In this document: in pieces, positions 2,140 to 5,166 of the stretch
Numbering within the stretch: the stretch's first letter is position 1
Layout: each line of letters opens with the position of its first letter
Assembly (NCBI RefSeq): GCF_055900595.2
Contig: NZ_JBVWEU010000008.1
Direction: 5' to 3' (one strand)
Origin: a plasmid
Length of the DNA stretch: 5,166 bases
Made by a program: the position numbers and the translations under genes
Notes under the pieces: generated by a model
What the model saw: only the letters and a program-made list of their open reading frames with translations
Databases searched by the model: none
What the model was told of the DNA's origin: nothing

Positions 2140-2197
2140 CTGCTCAAAAAGACGCCAGAAAGGCGCTGTTATCTGATATAGGCTTATTTGGTCTACT
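2140..2197 (-). other. ori: ColE2-type origin of replication (Rep-binding / primer RNA site)
   Basis: Directly 3' of rep and overlapping its stop codon. The rep-sense strand reads TAGACCAAATAAGCCTATATCAGATAACAGCGCCTTTCTGGCGTCTTTTTGAGCAGC, which matches my recollection of the ColE2-P9 minimal origin (AGACCAGATAAGCC..TATCAGATAACAGCGCC..TTTGGCG). Confidence 0.6.
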
Positions 2198-3107
2198 CTA
2201 CGAGACCTCGTTTTTTCAGTTGGTAATACCAGGCGCGACTGATCCCTAATGCCTCCCACGGTTTCAGCGTGCGTGCAGATGTAGCTACTGTGCTGCGCTT
2301 AGACTTAGAACCGCCCTTGCGACCGCGTGCAGCCTGAATTTCTGGCGTGTGCGTATCAGCCACATACTGTGCGAAAGTTTCCGGCGTGAAGTTCCTGTGC
2401 GTGTATTTCGCAATGCTCTTGCCAATAGCCCGACATTCAGCCAGTGAAAGCGGAACGGGAAGCGATGCATTGTACATTTCGACACGCTGGATCACCGCTT
2501 CAAGCCACTGTGAGAACGCTGGCCAGCCCTGACGAATCGCCCTGTAAGCCCATTTGCGCGTCATTTCGAACAGGTGGCAGTTTCGCCCCATCCCGTAATG
2601 TTTATCGATGCTACGACGCTCTGAGGCGCTCAAATCGAGATAATCAGCCAGTTCATCGAGGGTATAGGCTTCCTCGCGCCACTCCATCACCAGCCATTCC
2701 AGGTGGAACGGATTTTTGCAAATCAGGCCGCTGTAGTTCACATCCGCACAAAGTTTCTCACACAGCGAACGTTCAACCGCTGCGGCATATTTCAGCGCCT
2801 TAACCGAGGCATCAGGCGCGGTTCTCACGGCGATGTTGAGTGCGTAGAGCAGGTGAGCGTGTCCGTTCACAGGATTTTTAACGGTGATGTTCGGCGCGGG
2901 AGCGTTCCGGTCGCTCCAGTCAATCGCAGCCCCCTCGCGGTCAACGTCAAAAACCAGCCAGAACTGTGCATGAGGCTGGTTCTGCTGGATATACCGTGCA
3001 AGAAGCGCGCGCCCTTTGCCGGAGATACGAAGGCCGAAAGCGAGATCATCCGTGTGATAGGGACGGTGGGGTAAATTTTCTTCGAAGTATTGAAGCGCGG
3101 CGCTCAT
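2193..3107 (-). CDS. rep: ColE2-type replication initiator Rep (primase-like, 304 aa)
   Basis: 304-aa ORF, ATG at 3107..3105 with AAGGA SD 10 nt upstream. Sequence (MSAALQYFEENLPHRPY..., FDVDREGAAIDWSDRNAPAPNITVKNPVNGHAHLLYAL, GKSIAKYTHR) matches my memory of the ColE2/ColE3 Rep family. Origin-like sequence lies immediately downstream, as in ColE2. Confidence 0.85.
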   Translation of the reverse strand: MSAALQYFEENLPHRPYHTDDLAFGLRISGKGRALLARYIQQNQPHAQFWLVFDVDREGAAIDWSDRNAPAPNITVKNPVNGHAHLLYALNIAVRTAPDASVKALKYAAAVERSLCEKLCADVNYSGLICKNPFHLEWLVMEWREEAYTLDELADYLDLSASERRSIDKHYGMGRNCHLFEMTRKWAYRAIRQGWPAFSQWLEAVIQRVEMYNASLPVPLSLAECRAIGKSIAKYTHRNFTPETFAQYVADTHTPEIQAARGRKGGSKSKRSTVATSARTLKPWEALGISRAWYYQLKKRGLVE

Positions 3108-3124
3108 GTGTTACGATTCCTTCC

Positions 3125-3203
3125 AGGTTATCGACCGACATCGCCCCTGTATTTTCGTGAAAGTCTTGGCGGATAGACACGAATTTCAGGGGCGTTTGTT
3201 TTT
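3125..3203 (+). ncRNA. Putative antisense RNA (RNAI-like) complementary to the rep mRNA leader
   Basis: Bipartite hairpin: outer stem CGCCCCTG (3142-3149) / CAGGGGCG (3187-3194), inner stem TTCGTG (3154-3159) / CACGAA (3178-3183), followed by TTTGTTTTT (3195-3203) on the + strand only. Candidate + promoter TTGAAG (3090-3095), 16-nt spacer, TGT-TACGAT (3109-3117) overlaps the rep start. The 5' end is a guess. Confidence 0.4.
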
Positions 3204-3262: not shown

Positions 3263-3290
3263 ATTTACCATAACTCCCGTTGTACGTACC
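3263..3290 (-). other. cer-like XerC/XerD recombination core (multimer resolution site)
   Basis: Minus strand reads GGTACGTACAA-CGGGAG-TTATGGTAAAT. XerD arm is identical to the ColE1 cer XerD site (TTATGGTAAAT); XerC arm is 10/11 to cer GGTGCGTACAA. Central region is 6 bp. Confidence 0.65.
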
Positions 3291-3391
3291 ATGTAAAACG
3301 CCCTCAATCGCTTTCTGGCGCAAAAAACGCAAAAAGACAAGAAAACACCAGGCCAAACCAGAAAAACGCGTCAGAAACGTTTTCAGAGCGT

Positions 3392-3405
3392 TGCATAACT
3401 ATGCA
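3392..3405. promoter_or_regulatory. ARG-box-like palindrome (possible ArgR accessory site of the cer-like locus)
   Basis: TGCATA-AC-TATGCA palindrome, about 120 bp from the Xer crossover region on the XerC side, where cer carries its ArgR site. Pattern TGnAT-N4-ATnCA versus ARG-box TGAAT-N4-ATTCA. Confidence 0.3.
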
Positions 3406-3532
3406 CGAAAGCGATGTGCGATCGGTTTCGTGCGTTCTGAACACCGAACGGCTCAAAACGACAAGTTTTCTCCCCTGGTGCGTGGCGCTCTGACGGGGTT
3501 TCCTGTTTCCAAACTTCACATCTCGCCAGGAC

Positions 3533-3556
3533 AAAAAAAAACCGACCTGGGGTCGG
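3533..3556 (-). terminator. Rho-independent terminator (minus strand)
   Basis: Minus strand: CCGACC-CCA-GGTCGG followed by 9 T (seen on + as A9 then CCGACCTGGGGTCGG). Confidence 0.55.
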
Positions 3557-3691
3557 TGGCAAGAATCAGAGTCTATGGGAAATATTTTAGTTATCGGATG
3601 CTCAATATTCACAAACGCAAAAAATGCCTCAGTGATGCCCTAAAACAACCTTTCCAGAAGGAGTCCGCGCTTTACGATGCACGGAAGAGAT

Positions 3692-3713
3692 AAAAAACCC
3701 CACAAAAGTGGGG
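3692..3713 (-). terminator. Rho-independent terminator (minus strand) at the backbone/AT-rich boundary
   Basis: Minus strand: CCCCAC-TTTT-GTGGGG followed by TTTTTT. Confidence 0.5.
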
Positions 3714-3940
3714 AACCAAGAGAAACAACAATTACAGGTTGTTGGTTGTGTTCGAACAACGATGAAGTAGCTACGCTAAATAATAATTACCGTACAGGCC
3801 CTACATATTCAACACTAAATTTAAGATCCTGACGAAGGATTTATAAATGCACGAAAACACATAGACAGACAAATTCACTAAATTCATACACAAAAACAAG
3901 TGTAGTTTTCTAAGTAAATTAGATTCGACAACCAATTAGT

Positions 3941-3949
3941 TTATCCACA
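3941..3949 (+). promoter_or_regulatory. DnaA box consensus (TTATCCACA)
   Basis: Exact 9-mer TTATCCACA inside the A/C-rich tract. Only one copy seen, so function is unproven. Confidence 0.3.
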
Positions 3950-4097
3950 TCGCATTCCACTCTTGCTACACCAATCACATTTCTTGATATGTAATAGCAG
4001 AAAAAATAAAACCAGACACCAATAGACCAAAAAACAAACATTCAACAAGAAACATTTTGAACAATATCACAAAACTGTCACAACCATCATCAGACTT

Positions 4098-4126
4098 TTG
4101 AAAAAAACTGGTTGCTGTTTTATAAA
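4098..4126 (+). promoter_or_regulatory. Candidate sigma70 promoter (TTGAAA, 17-nt spacer, TATAAA)
   Basis: -35 TTGAAA at 4098-4103, 17-nt spacer, -10 TATAAA at 4121-4126. About 105 nt upstream of the + strand terminator at 4212-4236. Confidence 0.35.
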
Positions 4127-4132
4127 AGCGAC

Positions 4133-4237
4133 TGTAACAACCTCCACTCTATAGTTCCATTAGTTTAAAGTGTCACACAAACTGAGCATCCATTTGTTTT
4201 CCTTACTTTTGCCCCTGTATTCCAAGGGGTTTTTTTA
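4133..4237 (+). ncRNA. Candidate small RNA, module 1 (promoter to terminator, about 105 nt, no ORF)
   Basis: Predicted start about 7 nt after the -10 at 4121-4126. Contains ACACAAAC, then TTTTCCTTAC (4197-4206), then terminator hairpin. No ATG in the interval. Confidence 0.3.
4212..4236 (+). terminator. Rho-independent terminator (plus strand), module 1
   Basis: CCCCT (4212-4216) / AGGGG (4225-4229) stem with 8-nt loop, followed by TTTTTTT (4230-4236). Preceded by TCCTTAC at 4200-4206. Confidence 0.5.
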
Positions 4238-4467
4238 TAACTTAAAGATTAGCACACCACACAAAAACAATAAAAAAAAACGACAAGTTATACAATAAAA
4301 CCAGTACCATCCATACAGCTAATTACATATAAATACTATTAAACCATCTGGACATTAAAAATAAACTCTTATAACATAAAATTAATGCGGTTCCGGTACC
4401 ATATGTCAGGGATAATGTGCAAATGGAGGTATCGGAACTGCATTTCAGTTCATTATTAATTAATGAC

Positions 4468-4494
4468 AAAAAAAAACCTCTGCGAGCGCAGAGG
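4468..4494 (-). terminator. Rho-independent terminator (minus strand), module 3
   Basis: Minus strand: CCTCTGC-GCTC-GCAGAGG followed by 9 T (+ strand A-run 4468-4476). Preceded on the minus strand by TCCTTAC (+ coordinates 4503..4497). Confidence 0.65.
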
Positions 4495-4526
4495 GGGTAA
4501 GGAATGTTCCCGGTCATAATATGTCG
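4468..4526 (-). ncRNA. Candidate small RNA, module 3 (about 60 nt)
   Basis: Runs from the candidate minus-strand promoter (4533-4561) to the terminator at 4468-4494. Contains ATTCCTTACCCCC immediately 5' of the hairpin. Confidence 0.3.
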
Positions 4527-4532
4527 ATAGTG

Positions 4533-4561
4533 TTTATATACATACAGAACAAGAACAACAA
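4533..4561 (-). promoter_or_regulatory. Candidate sigma70 promoter on minus strand (TTGTTG, 17-nt spacer, TATAAA)
   Basis: Minus strand -35 TTGTTG (+ 4561..4556), 17-nt spacer, -10 TATAAA (+ 4538..4533). Directs transcription toward the 4468-4494 terminator. Confidence 0.35.
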
Positions 4562-4713
4562 CCAGCCAACTAATAAATATTTTATTTTTTAGAGCTGAAA
4601 CCTTAAAGCTCACTTCCATTCCATACATTGTTATAAACCTTATGTTGAAAACTGAAAGTAAGTACGGCAGACTTATTAAGTTGCGTGCAGTCTTTTCACG
4701 TTATACAAACAAG

Positions 4714-4770
4714 AACACCTGCGAAGTTATTTCTCCTTACATATCCCCCTATGCCAACGGGGGATTTTTT
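4714..4770 (+). ncRNA. Candidate small RNA, module 2 / possible leader of the 69-aa ORF
   Basis: Weak promoter TTGCGT (4681-4686), 15-nt spacer, TATACA (4702-4707). Transcript would contain TTCTCCTTAC (4731-4740), then ATAT, then the 4743-4770 hairpin and T-run. Start is uncertain. Confidence 0.25.
4743..4770 (+). terminator. Rho-independent terminator (plus strand), module 2
   Basis: ATCCCCC (4743-4749) / GGGGGAT (4759-4765) stem with 9-nt loop, followed by T-run to 4770. Preceded by TCCTTAC at 4734-4740. Confidence 0.6.
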
Positions 4771-4842
4771 CTGGTTCACTAACGCATAAATAATAGTGAC
4801 ACCCTATCATTCACAAACCGTGATAATATAAGGATTATCATC

Positions 4843-5052
4843 ATGGCAAAATTAGGTGAAAACACCCCACATATTATCGATGCTACTGTAGATTTTATGG
4901 CATCAAGCCAGGCATTTCGTGAGTATCTGAAAAAACTTCCCCCTGATAACACAATACCGCCAGCTCTTACTGATGAGCACGTACCGTTATATATACGAAG
5001 GCTGGAATACTATCGTCTGCTTTATCGACCAAAGCAGACAGAATCATATTGA
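4843..5052 (+). CDS. Hypothetical small protein (69 aa), not recognised
   Basis: ATG at 4843 with AAGGA SD (4830-4834) 8 nt upstream; TGA at 5050-5052. Balanced codon usage, hydrophilic, no transmembrane segment. I do not recognise the family ([18 protein letters not shown]...). Competes with a minus-strand frame that is open from the window end to a TAA near 4966. Confidence 0.45.
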
Positions 5053-5166
5053 AAAAAACGGTGAACGGTTCGCGAAATCCTTTCGCGGGTCGTGAGGCGT
5101 TGGACAAGCGAAGCGCGTCAGTTTTTCCGGCTCTTCCCCGTGACAGGTTTCTCCACCAGTTTATCT

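Follow-up and report, generated by a model that had tools for sequence, protein, structure and literature searches.

The window analysed here, the whole 5,166-nucleotide (nt) stretch of contig NZ_JBVWEU010000008.1, is a complete ~5.16-kb Col156/ColE2-type mobilizable plasmid of Escherichia coli. Its 69-amino-acid (aa) open reading frame (ORF) at 4843-5052 on the plus strand, listed in RefSeq as a coding sequence for hypothetical protein WP_001096196.1, is, judging from comparative sequence analysis, a real and functional gene, a plasmid paralogue of the chromosomal gene yibT. By the same alignments it is placed at the junction (~4802) between a conserved non-coding block and the mobilization genes. 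An earlier note on this DNA, made from its letters, had proposed that the ORF is expressed by read-through of an upstream terminator and that an upstream UCCUUA (4734-4739) masks its Shine-Dalgarno (SD) sequence in cis. The explanation that in our view fits best overall, and which we regard as probable, is that the ORF encodes a functional YibT paralogue, is likely to have a promoter of its own, and that UCCUUA does not serve as a dedicated anti-SD element in cis.

A YibT family gene on a small plasmid

A phmmer search of 5.8 billion proteins with the 69-aa sequence, a homology search that the earlier note had called for, leads to the YibT family: it recovered 112 relatives, several of them named "protein YibT" and E. 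coli YibT among them, so that the description of the protein as an unrecognised orphan has to be given up. YibT of E. coli K-12 (b4554, YP_588470.1) is 74% identical to it over 68 of 69 aa without gaps (BLASTP, E = 5e-38), has the same length of 69 aa, is co-linear with it and shares the same invariant core. The window protein keeps each of the 16 columns that are invariant in an alignment of 20 family sequences, including N7, D17-F-M-A-S-S22, F25, P39, R53-L54, Y57-R58, Y61 and P63, with VDFMASS...RL.YYR as the core. YibT proteins form a small family restricted to Enterobacteriaceae, with 77 clusters at 50% identity, many of them fragmentary, and 57 loci in a species-level genome scan. With the single window protein as query, no usable match was obtained from Pfam, NCBIfam, PHROGs, PADLOC or, by phmmer, the PDB. 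Some deposited annotations of the same plasmid (rows H85 and H95) already name the gene yibT, and a gene labelled "YibT" appears in a figure legend of a plasmid survey (PMC10265513).

The plasmid ORF is at least 99% identical in 231 plasmid records. When compared with Escherichia chromosomal copies, the ratio of nonsynonymous to synonymous substitutions (dN/dS) is 0.17-0.21, with dN at ~0.2 and dS at 0.9-1.2; against Citrobacter and Salmonella copies it is 0.08-0.15, where dS is saturated. Within the plasmid lineage the ratio is higher (0.35-0.58), a value resting on 6-9 changes only. Given a dS of ~0.9 and a dN/dS of ~0.2, the plasmid gene is an old paralogue under purifying selection and not a recent capture from E. 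coli. One genome holds both a plasmid-type and a chromosomal-type copy (L011, L014).

What the note had read directly from the letters was accurate: the ORF with its ATG at 4843, its stop codon at 5050-5052 and its 69 aa is borne out by the sequence and the ORF list, and TAAGGA at 4829-4834, 8 nt before the ATG, TCCTTA at 4734-4739 and GATAAT at 4822-4827 are all located where they had been described. Its picture of a hydrophilic protein preceded by a good SD likewise agrees with a genuine gene, given the RefSeq entry, the identity to YibT and the dN/dS of ~0.2. That this is the only substantial ORF of the AT-rich segment (~3700-4840) needs to be qualified, as a 101-aa minus-strand ORF exists at 4323-4628; indels break that ORF in related plasmids, so that it is not a gene. 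The minus-strand ORFs at 4323-4628, 4779-4952 and 4967-5107 are unannotated in the records examined.

Copies identical or nearly identical to the plasmid ORF or to E. coli yibT were also encountered in assemblies labelled Ramlibacter, Corallococcus, Moraxella, Staphylococcus aureus and an Oscillospiraceae metagenome-assembled genome (L010, L016, L024, L015; P0086), mostly on very short contigs of 379-458 bp, and are most likely contamination by E. coli or plasmid DNA. Large resistance plasmids of the IncX1, IncF and IncR types (L008, L009) carry fragments of yibT that are truncated or flanked by the insertion sequences IS1, IS5 or IS26; an MltR-family gene beside one of them suggests that chromosomal mtlR-yibT segments were captured.

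The non-coding block and its three units

The segment upstream of the gene differs in composition from its surroundings, with a GC content of 0.34 at 4058-4801 compared to 0.52 in the backbone and 0.41 in the ORF. Two sets of plasmids allowed us to delimit it. The sister lineage of pMG828-4 (NC_008489.1; represented by L004, L005, L006, L011 and L072) shares window positions 4378-5166 at ~88% identity, and its mob backbone is 99-100% identical; a module/yibT block diverged by ~12% on such a backbone suggests recombination between plasmid lineages. Large plasmids of IncF or enterotoxigenic E. coli type (L067, L069, L070, L071) carry homologues of 4058-4801 at ~69% identity and have no yibT; a gene downstream of the unit M2 (see below) in these plasmids would favour a general leader role, and neither such a gene nor any ORF in the place of yibT was found there. 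The last conserved element of the block is a 17-mer, CATAAATAATAGTGACA (4785-4801, plus strand), identical in 8 copies from 4 lineages. Since homology to the IncF copies ends at 4801 and homology to chromosomal yibT begins only at 4836, just 7 nt 5' of the ATG, the non-coding block and the gene are separate units joined at ~4802.

The block (~4058-4801, and also 3671-3900) is made up of putative promoter-plus-terminator units, M1 and M2 on the plus strand and M3 between them on the minus strand. Among 5,426 complete E. coli genomes 350 carry it; of its 505 occurrences 504 are plasmid-borne, a single plasmid holding as many as 5, none is annotated, and none lies in a phage. Rfam, applied to the window and to the IncF loci, holds no family for the modules, and a search of the literature returned no relevant description of Col156 small RNAs. 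M1, M2 and M3 look like small-RNA genes in their sequence organisation.

M2 (4714-4772, with a presumed 5' end) contains UCCUUA at 4734-4739 and, as a stem-loop at ~4743-4765 with a U-tract reaching 4772, an intrinsic terminator. The terminator that the earlier note had placed between TCCTTA and the SD is thus present, with a GC-rich stem of 7 bp (4746-4763) followed by ATTTTTT, six U and a free energy of -11.7 kcal/mol by scan and folding; its helix is 100% paired in the copies compared, including a matched C/G double deletion in pSME173_2. In the comparison with the pMG828-4 lineage M2 is the most conserved stretch of the block, with 1.7% variable alignment columns (1/59, located in the terminator loop), compared to 23% in 4510-4680, 11% in the M2 promoter, 14% in 4773-4842 and 5.2% in the ORF, and the difference from its upstream flank is significant (Fisher p = 4.7e-5). 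The M2 core CTGCGAAGTTATTTCT(C/T)CTTA is invariant in 8 copies, and a strong terminator is found only in the Col156-type copies. The candidate M2 promoter (TTGCGT, 15-nt spacer, TATACA; 4681-4707, plus strand) is conserved in its -35 and -10 positions across the 8 copies; the -10 hexamer reads TATAAT in most copies of the pMG828-4 lineage, GTAAT in two of them and TACACA in two IncF copies.

M1 (4099-4238, plus strand) would consist of a TTGAAA-17-TATAAA promoter and an RNA-like unit of ~105 nt ending in UUUUCCUUAC and a terminator. Its body (~4134-4196) is nearly invariant and its promoter hexamers are conserved at an overall identity of 69%; it shares the repeat D3 with M2, and its TTCCTTA is deleted in the IncF copies. 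M3 (4468-4528, minus strand), recognised by the terminator scan and the TCCTTAC motif, comprises CAUUCCUUACCCCC and a terminator. Here ATTCCTTA and the stem CCTCTG/CAGAG are invariant and the loop is variable, GTATATAAA upstream is found in 7 of 8 copies, and the unit occurs alone in L070. Both M1 and M3 thus keep promoter-like hexamers, their bodies and their terminator stems, with loops that vary, across lineages of only 69% overall identity. A possible fourth unit, convergent with M3, was noticed at 4349-4460 (plus strand). It combines a promoter-like TGGACA-17-TAACAT (4349-4377), conserved in IncF copies, with a conserved inverted repeat TTCCGGTACC...GGTATCGGAA further 3' and a weak hairpin of terminator type (4435-4451). 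In pMG828-4 (L004, L068) an M1-like unit and M3 are separated by inserted genes for an ArsR/SmtB regulator and a FAD-dependent oxidoreductase.

The 3' end of 16S rRNA reads CUCCUUA, and copies of TCCTTAC in an RNA would therefore be anti-SD-like. The heptamer occurs exactly three times in the window, once in each unit (M1, plus strand, 4200; M2, plus strand, 4734; M3, minus strand, 4503), and each copy lies 3-6 nt 5' of an intrinsic terminator stem. Trans-acting small RNAs of the Hfq type, such as CyaR, carry an anti-SD seed beside a Rho-independent terminator, and M1, M2 and M3 resemble them in combining a promoter-like element, a short pyrimidine-rich UUCCUUA(C) and a U-tailed terminator; they differ from known small RNAs in having neither an Rfam match nor a supported target. 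One could hence imagine that M2, and possibly M1 and M3, are trans-acting anti-SD small RNAs that repress plasmid yibT, mRNAs with UAAGGA-type SDs, or both. The recurrence of the motif next to the terminators, the conservation of promoter-like hexamers, of a single-stranded core and of terminators across lineages of ~69% identity, and the elevation of M2 above its flanks all speak in favour of this proposal. Against it, the predicted duplexes of the three seeds with 7 translation-initiation regions, comprising those of the plasmid and that of chromosomal yibT, did not surpass those of shuffled sequences (z from -1.1 to +1.2), conservation of the motif is not strict (the IncF M1 has lost it by deletion, and 3 of 4 IncF M2 copies have UCUUCUUA in its place), and no Rfam family matches. 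We consider such a role unlikely, and slightly more so the extended version in which M1, M2 and M3 form a plasmid-borne anti-SD small-RNA family, present in ~6% of complete E. coli genomes, with M2 controlling the adjacent yibT in trans or via read-through.

Promoter, Shine-Dalgarno pairing and expression of plasmid yibT

The note had found no convincing promoter for the ORF itself. This agrees with a scan for full -35/-10 consensus promoters, which yielded nothing convincing for the ORF other than TTCACA-17-GATTAT (4810-4838); leaderless expression from the latter is possible, but its hexamers are unconserved in the sister lineage and we set it aside. The statement does not extend to -10 elements, since between the terminator and the SD lies a candidate, TATCAT (4805-4810, plus strand), with a C at -13 and no good -35, 3' of the terminator and 32 nt before the ATG. 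It aligns with a perfect TATAAT in four plasmids of the pMG828-4 lineage. By analogy with CTAAACT, located 5' of the yibT genes of Escherichia, Citrobacter and Salmonella, TATCAT could be a sigma-S-type -10 that functions without a -35, a reading to which we give roughly even odds.

In the expression scheme that we favour, transcription would most likely start from this sigma-S-like promoter of the gene's own, with its -10 TATCAT situated 3' of the M2 terminator. The resulting leader of ~26 nt would fold into a hairpin that exposes the SD and pairs the AUG, and translation would proceed from the conventional SD TAAGGA with its 8-nt spacer. The upstream UCCUUA belongs to M2, which has a terminator and a candidate promoter of its own and is kept independently of the gene. 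The SD (4829-4834, plus strand) aligns with the GGAG SD of chromosomal yibT and with CAGATC in the pMG828-4 lineage, and the SD-to-ATG segment, ATCATCATGG, is homologous between K-12 yibT and the plasmid gene. Folding predicts a local hairpin at 4818-4846 (plus strand; -8.5 to -12.6 kcal/mol) with the SD in the loop and the AUG paired; in a transcript beginning at 4817 the SD is unpaired with a probability above 0.9 and the AUG with one below 0.05. This hairpin is lineage-specific, as it is kept neither in the pMG828-4 leaders nor in the chromosomal ones. CsrA binds GGA in hairpin loops, and the loop at 4818-4846 displays AAGGAU, which is similar to such a site.

The alternative put forward by the note is that the ORF has no promoter and is reached by read-through only, with the M2 terminator acting as an attenuator and UCCUUA masking the SD in cis. 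Leaders that sequester the SD in cis are known as anti-SD hairpins of translational attenuators, RNA thermometers and the expression platforms of riboswitches, and the arrangement on the plasmid is similar in that a pyrimidine hexamer lies upstream and could pair with the SD if both were on one transcript. M2 and the ORF lie on the same strand 70 nt apart, no full consensus promoter separates terminator and SD, and the pairing is feasible. In hypothetical read-through transcripts the probability of the anti-SD:SD pair ranges from 0.2 to 0.9 depending on the assumed ends (0.49-0.51 for 4714-4870, 0.38-0.40 for 4714-4900, 0.9 for 4714-4850), and a structure forced to contain it has -33.3 kcal/mol compared to -34.0 kcal/mol for the minimum free energy (MFE) structure, a cost of 0.7 kcal/mol; the MFE structure contains the local hairpin 4818-4846. 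The 6-nt complementarity is real, yet it does not exceed the expectation from chance: when the 163 nt upstream are subjected to mononucleotide shuffling, 7% of the shuffles contain TCCTTA, and 39% contain some 6-mer complementary to the 13-nt SD region.

The comparison of plasmid lineages also disagrees with masking in cis. Between 4773 and 4842 the changes in the pMG828-4 lineage include five clustered on the SD (AAGGATTA to CAGATCAA) in addition to the change of TATCAT to TATAAT at 4805-4810, whereas the anti-SD side is invariant; among five plasmid sequences, 3 of the 6 anti-SD:SD pairs are broken in three, with zero compensatory changes. Compared to known leaders of this kind, the plasmid has a conserved intrinsic terminator between the pairing partners (including its compensatory double deletion), shows no covariation, and has no alternative antiterminator or sensor structure that folding could find, and the anti-SD sits in a unit that IncF plasmids keep without the gene. 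Cis masking is thus thermodynamically possible, but supported neither statistically nor evolutionarily, and together with the -10 element TATCAT/TATAAT 3' of the terminator, which makes read-through unnecessary, this leads us to judge the read-through, attenuation and masking model as quite improbable. Some incidental read-through and masking may occur in the window lineage.

Three observations weigh against the gene having its own promoter and being independent of UCCUUA. The candidate -10 has no matching -35 and was not reported by the consensus scan; if the M2 terminator is read through, the anti-SD:SD helix in the RNA is nearly isoenergetic with the MFE structure; and the loss of the SD in the pMG828-4 lineage may reflect relaxed selection on the gene instead of irrelevance of the pairing, as gene decay is possible there (one copy has ATA for ATG, and two have a Trp codon in place of the stop). 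Whatever caused the loss of the SD, the conservation of M2 independently of SD and gene stands in the alignments. That plasmid yibT is a captured copy in decay, a passenger of no use to the plasmid and with little or no expression, would agree with those defects of the sister lineage, with the truncated fragments between IS elements on large plasmids and with the higher dN/dS from the 6-9 changes within the plasmid lineage, but it is very unlikely in view of a dN/dS of ~0.2 over a dS of ~0.9 with every family-invariant residue kept, the lack of frameshifts in five aligned full-length plasmid copies, the near-identity in 231 records, and the canonical SD and start codon of the window lineage.

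The plasmid, the chromosomal locus and the wider family

From end to end, the window matches hundreds of circular ~5.16-kb E. coli plasmids, with identities that reach 99.9%; these are assigned to the types Col156 or rep_cluster_2131 and carry a MOBQ relaxase. The ends of the window are therefore joined in the real molecule. Annotated on the minus strand are a MobA/MobL relaxase gene (488-1414), a ColE2-type replication initiator gene (2193-3107) and a 534-nt gene for a 177-aa hypothetical protein that runs from 485 to 1 and on from 5166 to 5118. It had been considered in the note that a minus-strand frame entering from beyond 5166 and ending near 4966 might be the real gene in the region of the ORF; the minus-strand gene, however, already ends at 5118, outside the ORF. 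In the rep leader (3072-3195, minus strand) lies the only notable Rfam match, a sub-threshold one to PK-repBA (26 bits, E = 0.011), probably a stem-loop targeted by a plasmid antisense RNA for copy-number control. Between the AT-rich block and the region of the rep promoter there are two more strong intrinsic terminators (3541-3557 and 3698-3713, minus strand), and a 137-aa hypothetical ORF (~3282-3695), annotated by RefSeq across this stretch in one record, looks doubtful.

YibT is a known but functionally uncharacterised family of small cytoplasmic stress proteins. Native mass spectrometry carried out on colonies has revealed the chromosomal protein in intact form (PMC9196203), and liquid chromatography-mass spectrometry that of Salmonella, where it was tightly sigma-S dependent (PMC5437024). 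In a rob mutant yibT mRNA is reduced to 2% of the wild type (PMC7537768), PhoB regulates the gene positively (PMC10294691), and its deletion leads to higher butanol tolerance and an altered membrane fatty-acid composition (PMC4888631; PMC7537768). K-12 yibT is located between mtlR and yibL, whereas the plasmid copy resides on a high-copy mobilizable plasmid, and the GC-rich leader hairpin of Escherichia chromosomal yibT is missing from the plasmid gene.

A 15-nt motif, GCACGTTTTCCTYAA, was found in 48 of 48 upstream regions of chromosomal yibT, which represent at least 9 genera, at a distance of 71-95 nt to the ATG (chromosomal loci L012-L064; an example is L003, 6455-6470, minus strand). Its GCAC is 100% conserved and it lies ~20 nt 5' of a sigma-S-like -10. 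Because of this invariant GCAC, the distance to the putative -10 and the strong dependence of yibT on Rob, the chromosomal GCACGTTTTCCTTAA motif would fit a MarA/SoxS/Rob box (marbox-like); the literature searched held no published marbox assignment for it, and a quick scoring with a degenerate marbox failed to discriminate and was disregarded. The chromosomal UUUUCCUUAA, a look-alike of UUCCUUA, was considered as a conserved anti-SD and rejected, as it is part of this DNA motif. No such motif is found 5' of the plasmid gene, and the only match in the window, GCACnnTTT at 1437, is far from the ORF. Its absence implies that the chromosomal regulatory context was lost in the plasmid copy, which bears on orthology and regulation and not on the family membership of the protein.

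InterPro places YibT within the superfamily of the theta subunit of DNA polymerase III, as quoted in PMC5437024. Theta (HolE, PF06440) and its homologue HOT of phage P1 (PDB 1se7, 2ido) are close to YibT in size, the plasmid protein is predicted to form three helices as they do, and they have in common with YibT the motif DK-VD(F/L)-A-x-x-x-AF(K/R)E and a C-terminal RL..(Y/H)R. HOT (1se7) is the best PDB match of the YibT family profile (E = 0.0035), and of 20 family members tried against Pfam PF06440, 4 reach E <= 0.001 (best 8.3e-6) and 11 reach E <= 0.1, whereas the window protein has no match to this model even at E <= 10. An hhalign comparison of the family with theta/HOT is marginal (E = 2.2e-4, probability 45%, 47 columns), structure searches retrieved neither theta nor HOT and gave no theta-like fold, and a literature search on a link between YibT and theta brought up nothing relevant. 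The defining activity of theta and HOT is binding to the proofreading subunit epsilon (DnaQ), while the resemblance of YibT is one of sequence. We take it as a weak lead and not as established membership, and any corresponding biochemical role of the plasmid protein is conjectural.

Taken on its own, the finding is modest: a "hypothetical protein" of a small cryptic plasmid, one of those met most often in clinical E. coli, receives the name of the YibT family, and a speculative regulatory model of the ORF is removed. A by-product more interesting than the ORF is the unannotated small-RNA-like block. For its hosts, yibT on a high-copy plasmid would add to the amount of a stress protein under a regulation different from that of the chromosomal gene. 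HOT, like plasmid yibT, is a mobile-element copy beside a chromosomal one, and if the resemblance to theta is real, plasmid yibT would parallel the carriage of HOT by phage P1.

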